This document shows, piece after piece, positions 622 through 10,023 of a stretch of DNA of 10,037 nucleotides. The first letter of the stretch is position 1. The number at the start of each line of letters is the position of its first letter. The stretch lies in NCBI GenBank assembly GCA_039190745.1, contig JBCCXZ010000096.1, positions 1-10,037 on the forward strand, read 5' to 3'. The stretch comes from Planctomycetota bacterium (lineage in GTDB: Bacteria; Planctomycetota; Planctomycetia; Pirellulales; Lacipirellulaceae). The position numbers and the translations under genes were made by a program. Under the pieces are notes generated by a model. It saw nothing but the letters and a program-made list of their open reading frames with translations. It was not told the DNA's origin and did no database searches.

Positions 622-1128
622 CTACTGCTTGGCGGCCCTGCGGGCGGCCCAGTGGGCGCGGTCGAACAGCAGGCAGTGCAGCAGGATCGGCAGCTCGTAG
701 ACCGACAGCAGGAAGAACAGCGGGAAGCCCTTCTGGTACTTCTCGGCGAACTCGCTCATGTCGTGCGACTCGTCGTAGACGTCGTGATTCCAGTTCTGGA
801 ACTTGTGCCACACGAAGATCAGCAGCACGTACACCCACCAGGGTACTAACGGCGCGGCCCGGAACGCGGCGAACAGCAGTCCGATAAACAGCAGCGTGGC
901 TACCCACACCGTGAAGGGGACGTTGAGCAACAGGATGCCGAAATACACAACCAGCACGCCGCCGACGATCCACTGCCCGGCCGGTTCGGGGAAACTGTAG
1001 GCGATGCCGAACAGCGAGATGTAGATCCCCACCACCGCGATGAGGTGCATCACGTTGATGCCGAACTGCGAGTGGCGGCAGAGGTGGCGGCGGTAGAGCT
1101 CGTCGAAGTTGACGTTCAGCAGGTTCAT
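622..1128 (-). CDS. Integral membrane protein, DUF962/Mpo1-like
   Basis: 168 aa with about 4-5 hydrophobic segments. The N-terminal Y-x-x-H-x-x-x-H...N-x-x-H ([17 protein letters not shown]) and later W-x-x-x-Q-x-x-x-H-x-x-Y-D ([13 protein letters not shown]) resemble the DUF962/Mpo1 pattern. Co-oriented, 44 nt downstream of the aminotransferase, and ends in tandem stops TAG TAA. Confidence 0.65.
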
Positions 1129-1172: not shown

Positions 1173-3290
1173 TTACTCTTGCTTGGCGAAGGGCCGCGGC
1201 AGCGTGCGGGCGATGCCGGCCGCGGCGAGCGACGGCAGAGGGCGGCGGAGCACGGCCCCGACCGTCCGGCAGACCTGCTCGACCTCGTCCTCGGTGACCG
1301 ACAGCGGCGGGGTGAACTTCAGCACGTTGGTCTCGTACTGGCAGAAGCCCATCAGCACCGGGAACGTCGGCTCACGCAGCATGCCCAACAAACAGAGCCG
1401 CGGCAAGAGCTTCTTGAGCGCCGGCACACGAAGAGTCGAATCATCGAGCTCGATCCCGATCAGCAATCCGTAGCCCCGGACCTCCCGCACACGGCCGCAG
1501 CCGGCGAGGTGGTGATTGAGCCGGTCGACGAACAGCCGGCCGCGGTCACGCACCTGGTCGACCAGCCCCTCACGCTCGGCGCGGCGGAGCGAGTTGACCA
1601 CGGTCCGGAAACCGTAGTCGTAGTGGAACCGGCAGGCGAAATCCTGGCCGATGCTGCACCCGCGCTCGGCTAATCGCTGCTGGACACGCTCCGAGTGCAT
1701 CGAGAACGCGAACGGGTAGACCATGTCGGAGGTCGCCTTGCCGACGGTCAACAGGTCGGGCTCGACGCCGAGTTCGGCCGAGCGGACGAACGGACCAGTG
1801 CGGAAGAAGCCGGTCTGCACCTCGTCGATCAGCAGCAGGCAATCGTGTTCTTCGCGGAGCCGCTTCATGCGTTCGATCACCGCAGACGGGACCTCTCGCA
1901 CGCCGCCGACGCCCTGCACCAGCTCCGACTGGATCACGCCAATCGGGTGCTCGTCGAACGCGCGGCCGAGCTGCTCGACCGCGTCGGGCGCGAACGGGTC
2001 GACGTACACCACGTGCGGGTAAAGCGGGTCGAGCCCGGCCCGGAGCTTCGGCTTCCAGGTTCCGGTGAGCGCGAAGAGCGTCTTCCCGCCGAAGCCGCCG
2101 CGGAGCACGAGCACGTGGCTTCTGGGGTGCTGCGAGGCGAGGCCGATCTTCAACGCGTTCTCGACGGCGCTGGCTCCGCTCACCGCGGGGACGGCGTGCT
2201 CGAGGCCGGTCAGCTCGTACAAGCGGCGGAGCACTTCGGTGCGGCACGCCTCGGCGTCGCCTGTGTTGGTGATCTCCTCGACGTAGCCGGAAGGGTTGTG
2301 CCCGCGGACGCTGCACGCCACGCCGGCGACGCCGTCGAAGACCCGGCGGCCGCGGTCGACGATGTCGTGCCCGTCGACGTGCAGGTCCCGCTGCCGGAAG
2401 CCGACGGTCTGGATGAGCTTCACCAACGATGGGCTGTAGAGGTCGGCAAACACCCGACTGCGGAAGTCGAGGTCGTCTTCGATCCGCCGGAGCGCGTCGC
2501 GGTGCGGCTCCACCAACTCGGGGGCGTCGGCCTTGAGCCGCTCGACCAGGTGCAGATTGCTGATAGTGTTCGGCTGGTAGGTCGTGGAGTGGAACGTGGC
2601 CATGCCCTTCTTCAGCCAGTGGCCGAAGAGCGACTTCCCCGCGCCGAACGCGCCGAACGGCACGTCGCGGCCGACGAGCGATTCGTCGAAGACGACGATG
2701 TCCGGCGCGGGGCCGTCGTCGGTCTCACGCGAGTTGTCGAGATTGGTCCACACGACGACCAGCGGGGCGGCGCCCCGGTCGCGGCCATCAAACCACAGGC
2801 GGAGTGGGTTTGAAGCGGATCGCCACGCGTCGTGGGCGACGACGACGAAGCCGACCTCCGAGGTTCGTTGCTCTAGCACTTTCACGGCGGCAGCCGCATC
2901 GCCGAACACATCGACGCCCGGCAGGTACTGCACGTCGCCCTCGGGCAGCTCGGTCCGCGCGAAGTGCGAGAGCTCGCCCCGCTCGTCGAGGATCAGCCCC
3001 GCGTTCGGCCGGCCCTCCGCGTTGCGGCTGTAGCGGGCGAGCTTCACGGCGCCGCTGAGCGCCTCGTCGCGGCTGTTGGCGAGGAACACCTGCTGGTCGG
3101 CTTCGGCGTCCGGCCAAATGCGACGCGTCGTTTCGGACAGCAGCAGGCACGCCTGGGCCACGTGCGGGTTGAGGTACAACCGCAGCAGGTTCGGCGTCTT
3201 GGAACCGATCATCTCCCGGCAGCTCCGGTCGAAGAGCGATTCGCCCGACGCGGGGCTACATGCTGTGCTTGCCGGGGTTGTGCTTGGCAT
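1173..3290 (-). CDS. PLP-dependent class III aminotransferase with an internal duplication (degenerate N-terminal copy plus catalytic C-terminal copy)
   Basis: The C-half has VFDGVAGVACSVRGHN, SGASAVENALK, ELVQGVGG, LLLIDEVQTG (D489), PDLLTVGK (PLP Lys518, nt 1737-1739), VRGYGLLIGIEL and VLKFTPPL. The N-half repeats class-III motifs in degenerate form. The start is uncertain: ATG 3290 overlaps the upstream gene by 35 nt, and ATG 3212 is an alternative. Confidence 0.9.
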   Translation of the reverse strand: MPSTTPASTACSPASGESLFDRSCREMIGSKTPNLLRLYLNPHVAQACLLLSETTRRIWPDAEADQQVFLANSRDEALSGAVKLARYSRNAEGRPNAGLILDERGELSHFARTELPEGDVQYLPGVDVFGDAAAAVKVLEQRTSEVGFVVVAHDAWRSASNPLRLWFDGRDRGAAPLVVVWTNLDNSRETDDGPAPDIVVFDESLVGRDVPFGAFGAGKSLFGHWLKKGMATFHSTTYQPNTISNLHLVERLKADAPELVEPHRDALRRIEDDLDFRSRVFADLYSPSLVKLIQTVGFRQRDLHVDGHDIVDRGRRVFDGVAGVACSVRGHNPSGYVEEITNTGDAEACRTEVLRRLYELTGLEHAVPAVSGASAVENALKIGLASQHPRSHVLVLRGGFGGKTLFALTGTWKPKLRAGLDPLYPHVVYVDPFAPDAVEQLGRAFDEHPIGVIQSELVQGVGGVREVPSAVIERMKRLREEHDCLLLIDEVQTGFFRTGPFVRSAELGVEPDLLTVGKATSDMVYPFAFSMHSERVQQRLAERGCSIGQDFACRFHYDYGFRTVVNSLRRAEREGLVDQVRDRGRLFVDRLNHHLAGCGRVREVRGYGLLIGIELDDSTLRVPALKKLLPRLCLLGMLREPTFPVLMGFCQYETNVLKFTPPLSVTEDEVEQVCRTVGAVLRRPLPSLAAAGIARTLPRPFAKQE

Positions 3291-4986
3291 CGGGGAGCTC
3301 GTCGCGCATGAAGGCCAGGAACTCGGCGCTGGTCTTGCGCTTCATGAACAGGTCGGCAGAAACGCAATCGCGATCGCCGAAAGGGGAGTGCGGCAGGCCG
3401 TCGGCCCGGACGTAGCGGAGCTGGATCTTCGAGAGCGGCAGCCGCTGGTGGGCCGCCCAGAAGACGGCGAACTGCTCCTCGGTGAGGAACAGCTCGACGT
3501 GGAAGCCGATCCGCTTCACCAGCTCGTGGAACAAGAACGAAACGACGGGCGTCTCCTCGATCCGGTCCCAAAGCCGGCCGATCTTGTCGCGGGGGACTTC
3601 CAGCAATCCCTCGCCGGCGGCTTCGCTGGTGTAGTATTTGCTGACTTCGATCTGGCTGTCGCCCGCTTGGGCCTTGCGCACCTCGATATTGGACGCCTCC
3701 GAATCGTGGAAGACGCCCCACACTTGCTCGGCCTTGGGCGAATCGAGTTCTTCCCGCCGCACGAAGTAACCGCTCTTGGGCTTCGTGTTCAGCCGCAGCC
3801 GCAGGGCGAGCACGCCGCTGGGCGGGTAGTACATGCAGCGGTCGAAGTCGGCGTCGCCCCGGCGGACGCGCAGGAAACGATCCGCCGCGGGGTCGTAGAG
3901 CAGCGCGCTCTCGAGAGTGTCGCCCAGCGTGGAGTACTCGCTCCCCGAGCCGTGCACCGGCACGAAGAACACCGTGCCCATGCTGATGTAGGAGTAGTTC
4001 GGCACGACGTAGAACTCTCGGCCGGCGGCGTCGAGCTCGGTGATCGCCCGCTTGAGGGTTACGCCGGCGTCGACTTCGATCGATGCGCCGCGGACCCGCG
4101 CCCGTCGTCCCGTCTCGACGGTCTTCACGATCGTCTTGCCGGGGTACTTCCAGCCGAAGTGGGTCACGCCGGTGTTGTACCCCGCGATCGCGACGTGGCG
4201 GGCGTTGTACGGGTTGTAGAGCGCGAGCAGCTCGCGGACGGACTGCGGCTCCATCACGCCTATCCGGAAGCGCCGCCAGGGGGCGTGGACGCGAGCACCA
4301 ATGGAACCGACGAGCGCAATCAACCGACCGACAAACAGATACGACAACGCCAAGCAGACCGCATGCAGCACCGAACCGACCACGCCCTTCGGCTCCGGCA
4401 GGGCTTCAGCAAGCGCTCGGTTGGCGCCGAGCAGCGTGAGCGTGCGCAGGCTCGGCCACGCTGGCTTGGCGTGCAATGCGTGGACGGCTTGTTCCAACTC
4501 GGCGGGTTCGACGAAGCAGCTCCGCCAGCCGGCGGTCAGCAGCGGCCGCAGCCACGAGGGGCCGGCGGCGGTGAGGTTCCCCAGGCGGAGCACCGCGACC
4601 CTGCGGCGGGTTTCTTCTTGGCACAACGCAATGGCAGCTCGCTCGGTTTCGATCCAACGGTGATCACCGAAGTGAGCCGAGAACGAAGAGAGCAACGCCA
4701 CGCGGCACTCGGCGGTCGCTTCCAAGCACTCTCGGATCGCGTCGCGGTCGGCGGGCTGCCAATCGCGCCCGAGTGACACAGCGAAGCCGAGGCTAGCACC
4801 CTGGCTCTGAGCGTCTTCGATCTGTCGCCTCAGCTCATGGACGGAACCGCAGACCGGGCCCCGGTTCTGCGCTTGTTCACGCACACCGTCGGGCAACTCC
4901 CCATGGAGGTCGACCCAGACCACACGCGTGGCAAGATCGGCGGACGGCGGTGCGGGCTCGGCCTCTGTCGCAAACGCTTCGCTCAC
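3256..4986 (-). CDS. FAD-binding oxidoreductase (VAO/PCMH fold, aldonolactone-oxidase-like) with an N-terminal degenerate SDR-like domain and a hydrophobic linker; about 576 aa
   Basis: I re-called the start to GTG 4986 because it overlaps the psd stop (GTGA). The ORF-track extension to 5526 lies in another frame of psd. PCMH-type motifs: PQSVRELL, IEVDAGVTL, PNYSYISMG...VHGSG...TLGD. The C-terminal IQLRYVRAD and HNPGK resemble the ALO-family 'ExR' and 'HWGK' elements. Confidence 0.75.
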   Translation of the reverse strand: MSEAFATEAEPAPPSADLATRVVWVDLHGELPDGVREQAQNRGPVCGSVHELRRQIEDAQSQGASLGFAVSLGRDWQPADRDAIRECLEATAECRVALLSSFSAHFGDHRWIETERAAIALCQEETRRRVAVLRLGNLTAAGPSWLRPLLTAGWRSCFVEPAELEQAVHALHAKPAWPSLRTLTLLGANRALAEALPEPKGVVGSVLHAVCLALSYLFVGRLIALVGSIGARVHAPWRRFRIGVMEPQSVRELLALYNPYNARHVAIAGYNTGVTHFGWKYPGKTIVKTVETGRRARVRGASIEVDAGVTLKRAITELDAAGREFYVVPNYSYISMGTVFFVPVHGSGSEYSTLGDTLESALLYDPAADRFLRVRRGDADFDRCMYYPPSGVLALRLRLNTKPKSGYFVRREELDSPKAEQVWGVFHDSEASNIEVRKAQAGDSQIEVSKYYTSEAAGEGLLEVPRDKIGRLWDRIEETPVVSFLFHELVKRIGFHVELFLTEEQFAVFWAAHQRLPLSKIQLRYVRADGLPHSPFGDRDCVSADLFMKRKTSAEFLAFMRDELPDAKHNPGKHSM

Positions 4987-5999
4987 GGGGCGCCCTCGGG
5001 GCTTCGACCCTTCCAGCCCGACTGGCCGCCGCAGCCCGGGGCGAAGCAGTAGGCCGGCTCGCCGTAGCGGACCTTGTCGTCGCTGGAGATGAAGGCGTAG
5101 CAGTCCTCCTGTGGTTCGGTGAGCATGATCACAGTCGAGCCGAGCTCGAACGTGGCGGCCCAGTCGCCGGCTTCGAGTTCGATCGGCTGTTCCAACACGG
5201 CGGCCGAGACCTTGCCGCGACGCATGCCGAGCTTGCGGTTGGCCCGGACCTCGCCGTCGGGGTAGGGGTCCGCGATCCCGGAGGGCCGGTCGGCCCAGCG
5301 GTAACGGGCGGTGAAGGGCAGGGTGATGTTGCCCACGCCCCAGCCGGCGACCATCACCAGCAGGCAGCGGCCCCACTTCGTTTCCAGGTGCAGCACGACG
5401 CGTTCGTTGAGCGTAAAGACGGGGAACTCCTGCCGCTGGAACGGCGGGTGCACCAGCAGGCGGTGCCCCGGCACGTGGGTCACACGGGTGAGCTTGGCGT
5501 TCTGCGGCGCGAACACACGATGGCAATCGACCGGCGAGAGAAAGAAAATCGAGAACGCCCCGCCGTGGAACGGCCGGGTATCCGTCTGCGGAACGAGCGA
5601 GGCGAGCGAGTAGCCGATGCCCTTGGCCGTCATCACGGTGTCGCCGTCGATCGTGCCGAGGTCCTGCACGGTGCCGTCGACCGGGCAGAGCAGGTTCAGG
5701 TCGGGGCGCTGAAGCGGGCGCGACTCCGGTCGAACGCCGCGGGTGAACAGCTCATTGAGCGAGCGGTAATCGCCGATGGGCTGCTCCATCTCCTCTTCGC
5801 AGAGCGGCGAGTACTTGCTGCCGTACACCTCGCGGAAGAGCTTCTCGCGGAGCGAGCGGCTGGGGATCGGCATCTTCGACAGCCGCACCGCCAGAGACGC
5901 GGCCAGCACGCTCGCCGGCCCGCCGTGGATCTTGCTGGCTTGCTTGAACTGTTCGATGCGAGCTTGTGTATTGGTGGGTGTTTGGGTTTTCGAAGACAC
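4983..5999 (-). CDS. psd: Phosphatidylserine-decarboxylase-family pyruvoyl proenzyme (divergent; substrate uncertain)
   Basis: LNELFTRGVRPESRP, LLCPVDG (D108), AKGIGYSL, LSPVDCHR (H160), LNERVV and the FELGSTV self-cleavage motif (S288; LGST at nt 5133-5144). GTG start with an AAGGA RBS at 6006-6010. The symbol marks the family, not proven PS activity. Confidence 0.88.
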   Translation of the reverse strand: MSSKTQTPTNTQARIEQFKQASKIHGGPASVLAASLAVRLSKMPIPSRSLREKLFREVYGSKYSPLCEEEMEQPIGDYRSLNELFTRGVRPESRPLQRPDLNLLCPVDGTVQDLGTIDGDTVMTAKGIGYSLASLVPQTDTRPFHGGAFSIFFLSPVDCHRVFAPQNAKLTRVTHVPGHRLLVHPPFQRQEFPVFTLNERVVLHLETKWGRCLLVMVAGWGVGNITLPFTARYRWADRPSGIADPYPDGEVRANRKLGMRRGKVSAAVLEQPIELEAGDWAATFELGSTVIMLTEPQEDCYAFISSDDKVRYGEPAYCFAPGCGGQSGWKGRSPEGAP

Positions 6000-6013: not shown

Positions 6014-7531
6014 TTACATTTCTTGGACCGCAACCGCCGCGACACGCAACGCGTTCGCGGCGATGGTGAGCGACGGGCCGACGCCCATCGAGTTGGGCAG
6101 CACGCTGCCGTCGACCACGAACAGGTTCTCGCGGCCGTACACGCGGCAGTCCGGGTCGGTCACGGCCTGCTTAGGGTCGGTCCCCGAGCGGAGTGTGCCG
6201 CACTGGTGGGCGACGTGCTCCTGGGAGGGCATCGCCTTGGTGGCCACGTGCCAGGCGCCGCCGCGGCGGAGGATCGCCCGCATCGCCCGGGTGAGCGCCC
6301 GGCCGCGGACGCGGTCGAACTTTGAGTAACGGTGCTCGAGGCCGATCGAACCGTCGCTGCGCAGCGTCACGCGGTTGGCGGGGTCGGGCAGGTCTTCGAC
6401 GATTCCGACCATCGGCAGCATCCGCTTCCTGAGCTTGAGCAGCACGCGCTTGGGGACCTTCTTCAGCCCGCTCTTGGCCATCATCAGCGGCCCCGGCGCG
6501 GGCAGCGATTGGACAATCCCCATTTTGGCCATGCACCGCGGCGTGCCTAGGTAGTAGTCCGCAAATCCGACTTGCTTGATGAACGTCTCGTCGGCCCCCG
6601 TCGCGGCGGGGAAGAACCCCACGGCCAGCGGCGAGTAGTGCAGCATGTAGTTCCGCCCGACGTTGGGGCCGTCGATACCCGACTTCAGCATCAACGCCGT
6701 CGAGCCGATCGCCCCGGCCGCTAAAGCGTAACGCTGTGCGCGGAAGCGGTGAGTTTGCTGATTGTTCCGATCGCGGACGACGACGGCGTCGACGCTCCCG
6801 TCTCGGTTGGTCTCCAGCCGATCCACTTCGGCGTTGTCCATCAACCGCACGGGGCCGGCGGTTTCGTCGAGCACGTGGGCCGAACTCCGGCGTGCGTCGT
6901 GCGGGCAGAGAAACCCCGCGCAAGCGTCGCACAGCTCGCACTTGCCAGTGTCGATGGCGAGCGGTAACTGAAACGGTTTGAGTCCGGCGCGCTGGTTGGC
7001 CGCGATCAGCTTCTGGTTGATCGGCGCCAGCGGCAGAACGCTGCCGAAGAGCTGATCTCCCGGCGGGTGCAGCGGATCGTACCCATCATTCTCTTGTTCC
7101 CCTCGATGCCAGGTGAGCTTGAAGAGCTGTTCAGCCCGATCGTAGTGCGGGCGGAGGTCGTCGTAGCTGAAGGGCCACTGCCAGAGGGCCCGGTCGAGGC
7201 GGTCGCCGTACTGGGCCCCGGGTTCGAAGTCGCACGGCGCGGGGCGGAGCATCAACGCGCCGTACACGGAGGTGCTCCCGCCGACCACGCCGCCCATGTA
7301 GAGCCGCGCAGGCGCTTCGTTGACGTACACAATCCGGTCGTCGTACGGTCGCTTGTCGAGCAGTGTGGCCCGTTCGTCGTGCGGGCCGCCGGGGTAGGAC
7401 TCCAGCACGGCGGCGGTCCGGCGGCCCCGTTCGATCACGAGTACGCTCTTGCCGGCCTGTGCGCAGGCGTGGGCGAACGAGGCCCCGCCGGCCCCGCTGC
7501 CGATGACAATCGCGTCGAAATCTAGCTCCAT
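6014..7531 (-). CDS. GMC-family (glucose-methanol-choline) FAD oxidoreductase, about 505 aa
   Basis: I re-called the start to ATG 7531 (MELDFDAIVIGSGAGG), immediately before the Rossmann GxGxxG motif. Other motifs: VLVIERG, GGVVGGST, WPFSYDDLRPHYDRAE, CxxCxxCxxxxCP, LAAGAIGST, VGRNYMLH, EDLPDPANRV, HQCGT (catalytic His442), NLFVVDGSVLP and PSLTIAANALR. Confidence 0.93.
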   Translation of the reverse strand: MELDFDAIVIGSGAGGASFAHACAQAGKSVLVIERGRRTAAVLESYPGGPHDERATLLDKRPYDDRIVYVNEAPARLYMGGVVGGSTSVYGALMLRPAPCDFEPGAQYGDRLDRALWQWPFSYDDLRPHYDRAEQLFKLTWHRGEQENDGYDPLHPPGDQLFGSVLPLAPINQKLIAANQRAGLKPFQLPLAIDTGKCELCDACAGFLCPHDARRSSAHVLDETAGPVRLMDNAEVDRLETNRDGSVDAVVVRDRNNQQTHRFRAQRYALAAGAIGSTALMLKSGIDGPNVGRNYMLHYSPLAVGFFPAATGADETFIKQVGFADYYLGTPRCMAKMGIVQSLPAPGPLMMAKSGLKKVPKRVLLKLRKRMLPMVGIVEDLPDPANRVTLRSDGSIGLEHRYSKFDRVRGRALTRAMRAILRRGGAWHVATKAMPSQEHVAHQCGTLRSGTDPKQAVTDPDCRVYGRENLFVVDGSVLPNSMGVGPSLTIAANALRVAAVAVQEM

Positions 7532-7870: not shown

Positions 7871-8704
7871 ATGAGCACAGCGACTATCCAGCGTCAGTAC
7901 GACGAACTGATCGCCGACAACTACGACGCCGACCCGCAGGGACTAACCGGCAAAGCCCTCGATCGCGCACTCGATCAACTCGCCGACGCGGGCTGCCTTG
8001 CCGGAGACGGCGACCTGAAATCCATCGACGTGGGCATGGGGACCGGCTTGTTTTTCGACAAGCTCGCCTCCCGCACCGACCGGGAGATCGGGCCCTACGG
8101 CATCGACCTCTCCCAGCGTATGCTCGAGATTGCCCACGAGCGTATCCCCGAGCTGCGGTACGCAGTTGACGACGCGGCCAACCTTGACGACCACTTTGTG
8201 GAAGACCTCTTCGATCTAGCGTGCACCCACTTCATCACTGGGTTCGTGCCGCTGGCCGACCTGGCCCCCGTCATCTGGAACAAGCTCCAGCCAGGCGGGT
8301 ACTGGTCGTTCGTTGGAGCCTCCAGCGATGCATTCCCGGGCTTGCAGAAGCGGGCCTCCTCGAAGCTGATCCAAATGCTGGTCGGCAAACGCAGCTCAAA
8401 CCTCGATGAGTTGATCACGCCCAACGACCAATCCGCCGTCGAGGGCATCTTCCGCGGCAGCGGGTTTGAGGTGGTCGCTGCTGAGACGTTCCAGCCCAGG
8501 CTCTCCTTCCAAAACTTCCGCGAGTTCATGGAGTTCGCCTACCTGGGCGGCTGGCTCACGCCGTTCATCGAAGAGCTCGGCTTGCAAAAGGCGCCCCCGT
8601 ACCTGCGGATGCTGCTCAACCGGTTCTTTTTCCCAATGCAGGACCACCACACTATCGTGCTGGGCGTGGCGCGGAAGCCGCTCGAAGTCGGCGCTGCGGA
8701 GTGA
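7871..8704 (+). CDS. Class I SAM-dependent methyltransferase, about 277 aa
   Basis: ATG 7871 (MSTATIQRQYDELIADNYD) is preferred over TTG 7829. Motif I IDVGMGTG (nt ~8024-8047), GIDLSQRMLEIA, DDAANL, FDLACTHF and motif III LQPGGY. Confidence 0.9.
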   Translation: MSTATIQRQYDELIADNYDADPQGLTGKALDRALDQLADAGCLAGDGDLKSIDVGMGTGLFFDKLASRTDREIGPYGIDLSQRMLEIAHERIPELRYAVDDAANLDDHFVEDLFDLACTHFITGFVPLADLAPVIWNKLQPGGYWSFVGASSDAFPGLQKRASSKLIQMLVGKRSSNLDELITPNDQSAVEGIFRGSGFEVVAAETFQPRLSFQNFREFMEFAYLGGWLTPFIEELGLQKAPPYLRMLLNRFFFPMQDHHTIVLGVARKPLEVGAAE

Positions 8705-8757: not shown

Positions 8758-10023
8758 ATGCGTGTCGCGATCGTCGCGGAGGTTTATCTGCCGAAGGTTG
8801 ACGGCGTCGTGATGCGCACGATGAACCTTATCGATTGCCTGCTGAAACGCGGCGACGAGGTGCTGGTCGTCTGCCCCGAGGTTCCCCGCCGCGGCGAGAG
8901 CCCCGTACCGCTGGTCGAGTTTCCCAGCTTCCCGTTCCCCGACTACCCGGAGTACCGCATCGGGCTTCCGGACGCACGCCTTCCCAAGGCGCTACAGGAT
9001 TTTGGGCCCGACGTAGTGCACTACCTGAACCCGTTTGCCTTCGGCTTCCGCTGCCACGACGTCGTACGCAAAGCGAAGCTTGACTTGCCGAGCGTCTTCT
9101 CGTTCCACACGCTCTACGGCGAGTTCGTGAAGCAGTACCCTTTCCTGAGCCCCCTCTCGCCGGTGCTGTGGTGGTTGACTAAGCAATACCACAACCGGGC
9201 CGACGCGAACCTTACGGTCTCGACCGTTATGCGCGACGACCTGACCGACCGCGGGTTCGAGCGCGTGCATCTGTGGCCGCCGGCGGTCGACAGCGAGTTG
9301 TTCCGCCCCGACCGCGCTACCGCCGCGATGCGGGAACACCTCTCCGGTGGACGCCCAGACGGCCCGCTGCTCCTGACCGTCTCAAGGCTGGCCCCCGAGA
9401 AGAACGTCGAGTTCCTTGCCGAGGTCCTGCGGCAAACCCCCGAGGCCAGGTTGGCTGTCGTCGGCGACGGCCCGCAGCGTGCTGAGCTCGAGCGCCGATT
9501 CGAGGGTACGAATGCAAACTTCGTCGGCTACAAGAGGGGCGAGGAGTTGGCCGAGGCCTACGCGTCTGCGGATGCGTTTGTCTACGCTTCTGAGACCGAG
9601 ACGCTCGGCAACGTTATTCTCGAGGCGATGGCCAGCGGGCTCTCGGTGGTGGCGCCGCGGGCGGGCGGCATCCCCAGCATGGTCGAAGAGGGAGAAACCG
9701 GGCTCCTGTTCAACCCGGGCGACACGGCCGACGCAGTCGCCAAACTGGCTGCAGTCCTCCAAGACGACGACTTCCGAACCGAGATGGGCCAGAAGGCCTT
9801 CGAAGCGGCCTCCGGGCAGTCCTGGGAGAACTCCGCTGACCGGGTTCGGGAATACTACCAGAAGGCCGCCGAGGCCCACCGCAACGGCGACGGGGCCCTT
9901 CAGTTGCGTGGGGGGCTGGCGCAGGCAACCATCGACTCGCTTGTCCTTGCTTACAGGGCCATGTCCTGGGCCCAGCAGGGCAAAGAACCGGCTGTACAGC
10001 CGTCCGAATCGCGGCCAAACTAG
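8758..10023 (+). CDS. GT4 (GT-B, retaining) glycosyltransferase, SqdX/SQD2-like putative glycolipid synthase
   Basis: MRVAIVAEVYLPKVDGVV, FPDYPEYRIG, SFHT, HNRADANL, FRPDRATAAMREHLSGGRPDGPLLL, RLAPEK, VGDGP and the E-x7-E motif ETLGNVILE (E281-E289). Purine-rich RBS AGAGGGGG at 8742-8749. Confidence 0.9.
   Translation: MRVAIVAEVYLPKVDGVVMRTMNLIDCLLKRGDEVLVVCPEVPRRGESPVPLVEFPSFPFPDYPEYRIGLPDARLPKALQDFGPDVVHYLNPFAFGFRCHDVVRKAKLDLPSVFSFHTLYGEFVKQYPFLSPLSPVLWWLTKQYHNRADANLTVSTVMRDDLTDRGFERVHLWPPAVDSELFRPDRATAAMREHLSGGRPDGPLLLTVSRLAPEKNVEFLAEVLRQTPEARLAVVGDGPQRAELERRFEGTNANFVGYKRGEELAEAYASADAFVYASETETLGNVILEAMASGLSVVAPRAGGIPSMVEEGETGLLFNPGDTADAVAKLAAVLQDDDFRTEMGQKAFEAASGQSWENSADRVREYYQKAAEAHRNGDGALQLRGGLAQATIDSLVLAYRAMSWAQQGKEPAVQPSESRPN

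Follow-up and report, generated by a model that had tools for sequence, protein, structure and literature searches.

A putative single-chain, pseudo-dimeric class III PLP enzyme in a planctomycete gene cluster

The window analyzed here, a stretch of 10,037 nucleotides from a Lacipirellulaceae genome of the Planctomycetota (assembly GCA_039190745.1, contig JBCCXZ010000096.1), carries a 705-aa open reading frame (ORF) related to the class III pyridoxal phosphate (PLP) enzymes, whose start overlaps the end of an upstream FAD gene by 35 nt. A sequence-only reading of this DNA had described the protein as two fused aminotransferase copies, each half having kept only its contribution to one composite active site; the ORF and all the motifs that it quoted were found where it had placed them. 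The features of the protein and of its neighbors are collected in Table 1.

Table 1. Features of the 705-aa protein, followed by the other genes of the window
Feature	Coordinates (nt)	Strand	Basis or occurrence
Predicted pseudo-dimeric class III PLP enzyme, single chain, 705 aa	1173..3290	minus	whole ORF
N-half, residues 16-257: truncated Lys-less fold-type-I large domain, putative helper subunit	2520..3245	minus	model compared with PigE 450-700
Putative partner-donated loop 1 retained in N-half (Pro33-Pro42)	3165..3194	minus	alignment to 2eh6
N-half version of NSGxEA helix, phosphate cup filled (Arg74, Asp75)	3033..3086	minus	alignment
PDIVVFDE, with Glu203 where the Schiff-base lysine would be	2682..2705	minus	hhalign register
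Putative partner-donated loop 2, FHSTTYQPN	2568..2594	minus	Thr237 = YgjG Thr332*, GabT Thr297
Helical connector, residues 242-272	2475..2567	minus	pLDDT 98
C-half, residues 273-690: putative catalytic subunit with both small-domain parts	1221..2474	minus	PF00202 and fold match
C-half GH...SG segment, loop 1 deleted	2175..2303	minus	span comparison
GFGGKT: Phe400 (ring stacking), Lys403	2079..2096	minus	alignment, comparison with YgjG
ELVQGVGG: Val461 in place of the Glu switch (YgjG Glu243, OAT Glu235)	1902..1925	minus	alignment
DEVQTG, residues 489-494: Asp489 for pyridine nitrogen	1809..1826	minus	114/114 and 106/106
Lys518, Schiff-base lysine	1737..1739	minus	114/114 and 106/106
C-half residues 547-560, Thr loop replaced by helix and short turn	1611..1652	minus	alignment, model
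FAD-binding-4 protein, weakly like aldonolactone dehydrogenase / alditol oxidase	3256..4986	minus	74/79 loci
Phosphatidylserine-decarboxylase-family (pyruvoyl) protein	4983..5999	minus	PF02666 144 bits; 65/79 loci
GMC flavo-oxidoreductase	6014..7528	minus	FAD-glucose and fructose dehydrogenases nearest solved relatives; 63/79 loci
Small His-rich membrane protein, faintly Mpo1-like	622..1128	minus	E 0.048 in one relative only; 75/79 loci
SAM methyltransferase	7871..8704	plus	profile matches include phosphoethanolamine and phosphatidylethanolamine N-methyltransferases; 59/79 loci
GT4 glycosyltransferase, glycolipid-synthase type, accessory	8758..10023	plus	46/79 loci
POT-family peptide transporter start, cut by contig end	1..536	minus	1/79 loci, outside cluster

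The protein belongs to class III by fold, with PF00202 scoring 148.5 bits (cut-off 30.5) over residues 314-677. Pfam and NCBIfam place a single class III domain at about residues 306-682, and on the N-half Pfam scores a weak 13.6 bits against the same cut-off. The protein falls below the thresholds of the family models for PigE (NF053554, 129.9 bits against 850) and YgjG (NF008570, 103.8 bits against 612), and the GcvP model is absent from its Pfam matches and from the best 25 of its 67 NCBIfam matches. Its relatives, taken as the best 120 of 822 matches, are 45-90% identical and mostly 680-760 aa long; the closest named locus, in a Lacipirellulaceae assembly, encodes a protein 91% identical. 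A profile-free search of cluster representatives gave a distant group (22-34% identity), likewise of about 700 aa. Two alignments were built: A1, the close group, has 114 rows (the query and 113 of the 120 best matches, seven partial or insertion-bearing rows being excluded), and A2 has 106 rows (the query, 20 close rows and 85 of 150 from the cluster-representative search, fragments and long fusions being excluded), 68 of which form the distant group. Counts out of 114 below refer to A1 and those out of 106 or 68 to A2. Among the relatives, P0076, P0102 and L021:10001-12583 are 895-915 aa long, with long low-complexity insertions restricted to the N-half.

The two halves are homologous. Profile-profile alignment with hhalign on the deep A2 gave a probability of 92% (E 5e-7, 178 columns), and on the shallow A1 it was not significant (E 0.13), the distant relatives being required for significance. 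In the A2 register PDIVVFDE faces PDLLTVGK and Glu203 faces Lys518, which bears out the placement of this glutamate at the PLP-lysine position. The N-half profile matches acetylornithine aminotransferase in the PDB (E 3e-6); among six-frame ORFs of the window's own genome its matches at E < 0.001 were this gene and five class III aminotransferases of ordinary type, with no others, the best of the five at E 6e-12. The C-half profile reached at least 10 bits on 9/106 N-halves, against 0/106 reversed and 0/530 shuffled ones. When the PDB was searched with phmmer and with whole-length profiles, the N-half stretch was never reported. Modelled alone (pLDDT 87), the N-half resembles residues 450-700 of PigE (Z 19.8, rmsd 2.9 Å, 225 aligned residues; other class III enzymes lie within 1 Z), in agreement with the fold-type-I large domain predicted for it. 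It begins just past the GH motif and stops in the helix following the Thr loop described below, and is without small domain at both ends; of the two Aminotran_3 repeats expected from self-alignment, the homology stands, but the N-half amounts to less than a full repeat. Of the 22 ordinary class III enzymes compared from the same class, the PigE-like L087 scored best against the C-half profile (232 bits, the rest at most 193) and narrowly so against the N-half profile (67.3 versus 66.7 bits). Since one protein is best against both, descent of the two halves from one PigE-like ancestor is favored, without being proven.

The N-half has lost or altered several parts of a PLP site. No lysine occurs at positions 201-205, within or beside PDIVVFDES (residues 196-204), in any row of either alignment (0/114 and 0/106). 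Its version of the NSGxEA helix, ANSRDEALSGAVKLAR (residues 71-86), keeps Asn72, Glu76, Gly80, Lys83 and Arg86 invariant; at position 74 the Gly is replaced by a bulky residue in 94/114, and position 75 is Asp or Glu in 113/114. The FHGxT segment is deleted. The sequence-only reading had the N-half without DEVQTG, which holds for the query (Asn183), but 75 of the 114 close relatives keep Asp at this position.

In class III dimers one subunit supplies the Gly, Asp, stacking aromatic and Lys of an active site, and its partner supplies a Thr (PMC4244111; PMC9309667); this Thr is Thr332* of YgjG (PMC4244111) and Thr297 of GabT (PMC9309667). The C-half of the 705-aa protein keeps the first set, with Asp489, Lys518, the phosphate-binding Gly372 and the stacking Phe/Tyr400 each present in 114/114. 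The Thr loop lies in the other half: HSTTYQPN (residues 234-241, nt 2591-2568) fits HxxT[FYW]xxN, found in all N-halves of the close group (114/114), while a Thr-loop pattern is found in none of its C-halves (0/114). Both observations accord with what had been read from the one sequence; the trans-acting residue, given there as Thr236/237, is Thr237 by the T[FY]xGN register. Among distant rows Lys518 is present in 68/68, the strict N-half motif in 58/68 and Thr237 in 65/68, and the ten rows without the strict motif still have an S/T-rich N-half loop, ending GN or GG. Thr-pattern matches in distant C-halves (5/68) either lie within helices or depart from T[FY]xGN. Where a C-half Thr loop would be expected stands FACRFHYDY (residues 551-559), and the model has a helix there, at 547-554.

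An ordinary class III subunit carries its own Thr loop, which the catalytic half here does not, and loop 1 is in the same case. Loop 1 of class III enzymes also serves, as we take it, the site of the partner subunit. The GH-to-SG span is 42-43 residues in all 114 C-halves, against 52-55 in 22/22 ordinary class III enzymes, and the piece absent (9-13 aa) corresponds to HSQELLD of YgjG and NFIQYISIPE of PigE. The N-half counterpart, PNLLRLYLNP, aligns to LYENP of acetylornithine aminotransferase (AcOAT, 2eh6); its Arg37 and Pro42 are present in 114/114 close rows, Arg37 not being invariant in the distant group. In a hand-set gapless register Arg37 falls at Gln119 of YgjG, a residue that binds putrescine at the far amine and adjoins the inter-subunit pair Glu120-Arg54 (PMC4244111). 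On these alignments, loop 1 is a second reciprocal swap, beyond the Thr loop, and one that the sequence-only reading had not noticed.

The full-length AlphaFold model (pLDDT 94.9, pTM 0.94, all five models at least 94.0) is one compact unit with seven strands per half, and an Atlas model (pTM 0.91) can be aligned along 680 residues to a cluster made up mainly of actinobacterial proteins. The two donated loops have pLDDT 97 and 78 in the full model versus 67 and 56 in the N-half modelled alone, for which the alignment was shallower. Supported by the homology of the halves, the family-wide reciprocal loss of motifs, the swap of loop 1 and the compact model, we consider it highly probable that a degenerate copy has been fused to a catalytic copy to give one complete active site per chain, as the sequence-only reading had it; from register and model we infer the loop-to-PLP geometry, assembly within one chain and activity. 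The C-half would hold PLP on Lys518 and supply all the same-subunit contacts (Gly372, Phe400, Asp489 and the small domain). The N-half would be the stump of a second PigE-like subunit, placed where the dimer partner normally sits, and would donate Thr237 to the PLP phosphate and Arg37 of loop 1 toward the substrate's far end. On both sides the mirror-image site would have decayed, leaving no pocket. Two analyses lent this account no support: fold searches with the full model returned, among the matches listed, no solved chain over both halves (best TM 0.52, best alignment 423 residues), and in mutual-information covariation between the halves (199 sequences) the signal came mainly from the division into a close and a distant group.

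The same parts might instead meet between chains, the N-half of one completing the C-half of another in a domain-swapped dimer. Class III enzymes are obligate oligomers (PMC9309667), and structure prediction on one chain would merge a swapped pair into that chain; the units of SerTA, a two-gene aminotransferase compared below, pair further into a tetramer. The connector, however, is helical and predicted with high confidence, the Asn241-Asp319 span is 78-80 residues in 114/114 close rows (75-86 in the 106 rows of A2), and the N+C unit is found embedded within long multidomain chains, so we hold a swap to be very improbable. A composite site within one chain does not require a monomer in size-exclusion chromatography with multi-angle light scattering, since in SerTA two such units associate as a dimer (PMC11726168).

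Nor does the suggestion that the freed second pocket was remodelled, for a bulky substrate, an effector, PLP or a partner protein, fare well. It draws on the Asp at position 183 in 75/114, on the conservation of Asp202-Glu203 in the close group, on the basic surface that Ser4 of SerTA presents for a carrier protein, and on an in silico proposal of a non-covalent PLP site in that half of glycine decarboxylase which has no Lys (PMC7259800). Against these, the N-half has no small domain and a filled phosphate cup, its FHGxT segment is deleted, and the C-half loops needed to complete that site are gone. Across residues 131-193 none of the 63 positions is conserved at 90%, the 124-196 span varies from 53 to 113 residues while its C-half counterpart is exactly 87, and two relatives have long low-complexity insertions in the N-half. 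We regard a retained pocket as hardly probable at all, and find this part of the earlier proposal unsupported.

The 705-aa protein, then, is class III by fold and not an ordinary homodimeric member. PigE (4PPM) and YgjG (4UOX) are nearest to both halves by profile and fold; the C-half model aligns to PigE 372-851 over 423 residues with Z 45.7 (ArgD and PigE, Z 45-46). YgjG shares a Lys at the Arg141/Arg180 position and an N-terminal helix. Both differ in being homodimers with two equivalent sites, each subunit having the Lys, the Asp and both donated loops, whereas the 705-aa chain splits loops and catalytic residues between unequal halves; YgjG has in addition the Glu243-Arg426 switch. By analogy, the protein may work like SerTA or glycine decarboxylase. 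SerTA (Ser4/Ser5 of Serratia sp. ATCC 39006) pairs a short Lys-less partner, without N- and C-terminal regions, with a full-length subunit that has lost its inter-subunit loop, as has the C-half here, and crystallography shows one active site per pair with partner residues binding the PLP phosphate (PMC11726168). In the 705-aa chain, unlike SerTA, the corresponding contact is read from the register and the pTM 0.94 model. SerTA also differs in being a heterotetramer encoded by two genes, of the sugar-aminotransferase (perosamine-synthase-like) type and not PF00202, and in lying in an amino-group-carrier-protein cluster; the 705-aa enzyme is one ORF with other neighbors.

Glycine decarboxylase (P-protein, GLDC/GcvP) is likewise of fold type I, one chain with homologous halves and Lys in the C-half only, and split alpha/beta forms exist (PMC7259800). 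It is a decarboxylase of another family, about 1000 aa long with two near-full halves, while the helper half here is cut to about 240 aa; its alpha chain matches the N-half model with Z 15.1. In serine palmitoyltransferase the LCB1 subunit is without the lysine. The coccolithovirus enzyme joins the fold-type-I heterodimer subunits LCB1 and LCB2 in one gene (PMC5371807); it differs in belonging to the alpha-oxoamine synthase family, with long-diverged eukaryotic subunits that are both near full length. Precedents thus exist in other fold-type-I enzymes (glycine decarboxylase, viral serine palmitoyltransferase, SerTA), and no class III precedent was found in the literature searched, which included PMC9081730, PMC9309667, PMC10829540 and PMC11214133 and few subscription papers.

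As to the reaction, Lys403 corresponds to YgjG Lys183, a position held by Arg in ArgD, OAT and GabT; the YgjG authors tie Lys183 to substrates without a carboxylate at that place. The Glu-Arg switch of YgjG is absent, with Val461 and Lys658 each in 114/114. In OAT the switch Glu shields the Arg and limits the reaction with glutamate (PMC13327489). The His of FHGxT and the first Glu of SGxEA are altered in the C-half as well. These three changes are what would speak for the architecture described but a reaction other than transamination, since class III folds include decarboxylases, racemases and phospholyases, and dialkylglycine decarboxylase, racemases and phospholyases score Z 38-43, near the top among the matches listed. 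The closest enzymes by sequence and fold are nevertheless transaminases (PigE, YgjG and ArgD), and the two oxidases and separate decarboxylase of the gene cluster leave amination as the missing step, so that another reaction seems to us quite unlikely.

We examined the neighborhood of the gene at 79 related loci, many of them cut by contig ends. Beyond the genes of Table 1, recurrent neighbors are a calcineurin-like phosphoesterase (38 loci), PAP2 (14) and a hydrolase (14). The GMC protein matches FAD-glucose and fructose dehydrogenases with E 2e-29, the likeness of the FAD-binding-4 protein to galactonolactone dehydrogenase is weak (E 0.004), and that of the methyltransferase to N-methyltransferases is generic. 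The FAD-binding-4 protein has no family match in its first 240 residues and a conserved C-terminal end of HNPGKHSM type. For the small membrane protein there was no Pfam match above threshold and no PDB match; its H19, N25, H28, Q111 and H115 are invariant, and it is possibly a metal-dependent membrane enzyme. The conserved six-to-seven-gene cluster probably makes an aminated, methylated lipid head group. In particular we propose, with confidence a little short of even, a ping-pong transamination of a sugar- or polyol-derived lipid head group that the two flavoenzymes had oxidized. With the Glu switch gone, Lys658 would be free for an alpha-carboxylate, and the product would then plausibly be a serine-like alpha-amino acid, to be decarboxylated by the neighboring pyruvoyl decarboxylase and N-methylated by the methyltransferase. 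Some observations count against such a pathway. An AGXT2-like enzyme of the same genome likewise has Val at the switch position, so Val461 may reflect the amino donor only; the TMO review names for Singulisphaera and its relatives no lipids other than phospholipids and ornithine lipids; and none of 45 loci showed a Pho-box-like pattern ahead of the GMC gene. The hexamer TGAATG occurs within 300 nt upstream of the GMC gene at 23/45 loci, versus 5.7 expected from base shuffles, an excess that may be inheritance, the loci being related.

The cluster could alternatively supply a PssA-independent route to phosphatidylserine, in which phosphatidylglycerol is oxidized and then aminated by the 705-aa enzyme, feeding phosphatidylethanolamine and phosphatidylcholine. 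This chemistry would suit the GMC protein, FAD oxidase, aminotransferase, decarboxylase and methyltransferase alike, and in four of the five carrier genomes checked (G000-G003) the cluster decarboxylase is the sole PF02666 match and pssA (TIGR00473) does not rise above cut-off. But carriers do not avoid a TIGR00473-type PssA (4/10, against 67/191 non-carriers of the class), and the glycosyltransferase and phosphoesterase neighbors suggest phosphorus-free lipids; we judge the bypass improbable. One family of the class (f81) has pssA in 0/48 genomes. Still fainter is the prospect that the enzyme performs the amination step turning glycosyl-diacylglycerol into a phosphorus-free betaine lipid with a DGCC-type head group, a lipid class whose biosynthesis is stated to be unknown (PMC10685587). 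The two flavoenzymes and the His-rich membrane protein would oxidize and cleave the sugar ring to an O-linked 2-oxo acid, whose amination would give an O-linked serine, then decarboxylated and N-trimethylated; nothing on DGCC or DGTA in planctomycetes was found in the literature searched.

The close family is patchy. It was found in 0/150 genomes across the phylum, on which count a spread throughout the phylum was rejected, in 9/200 across the class and at a few cyanobacterial loci. Three loci titled Kuenenia or Chitinophaga (L025, L037 and L042) carry the planctomycete-type cluster and are possibly mis-binned or mis-labelled. The whole N+C unit also occurs in fusions, with thioester reductase, methyltransferase, GCV-T and kinase-like domains and in carrier/hydrolase/flavin-monooxygenase proteins. 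In P0158, P0162, P0167 and P0171 the thioester reductase stands ahead of the unit, in the opposite order to TamH; these are candidate acyl-thioester-to-amine enzymes. L080:10345-15369 (plus strand), P0244 and P0259 are carrier-protein/hydrolase/N+C/flavin-monooxygenase fusions in which catalytic Lys and Thr loop are both lost, and because of that loss the unit appears, by its sequence, to be a pseudo-enzyme inside a 1670-1750 aa protein. L080 adjoins other very long ORFs on the Methylorubrum extorquens AM1 megaplasmid; a paper on a trans-acyltransferase polyketide synthase oxygenase does not mention the aminotransferase-like part. Of 95 short proteins matching the N-half profile, eight were examined for a split, two-gene form and none was convincing, these running out of frame or ending within the N-half or shortly past it, the pattern expected of frameshifts.

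The protein very probably shows how, in nature, a symmetric dimer with two sites has collapsed to a single asymmetric chain, and what was lost can be followed residue by residue. A 2022 review notes that little is known of heteromeric class III forms (PMC9309667). Because Pfam labels the C-half only, all members of the family are mistaken for ordinary aminotransferases that carry some unknown extension at the N-terminus. Omega-transaminases are limited by dimer dissociation, and a class III transaminase with one chain and one site would make a handy scaffold for biocatalysis and for fusions, such as nature already makes of the N+C unit with reductase, methyltransferase and carrier-protein domains. 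The 705-aa enzyme also marks an uncharacterized gene cluster of lipid type, whose product should be findable by lipidomics.

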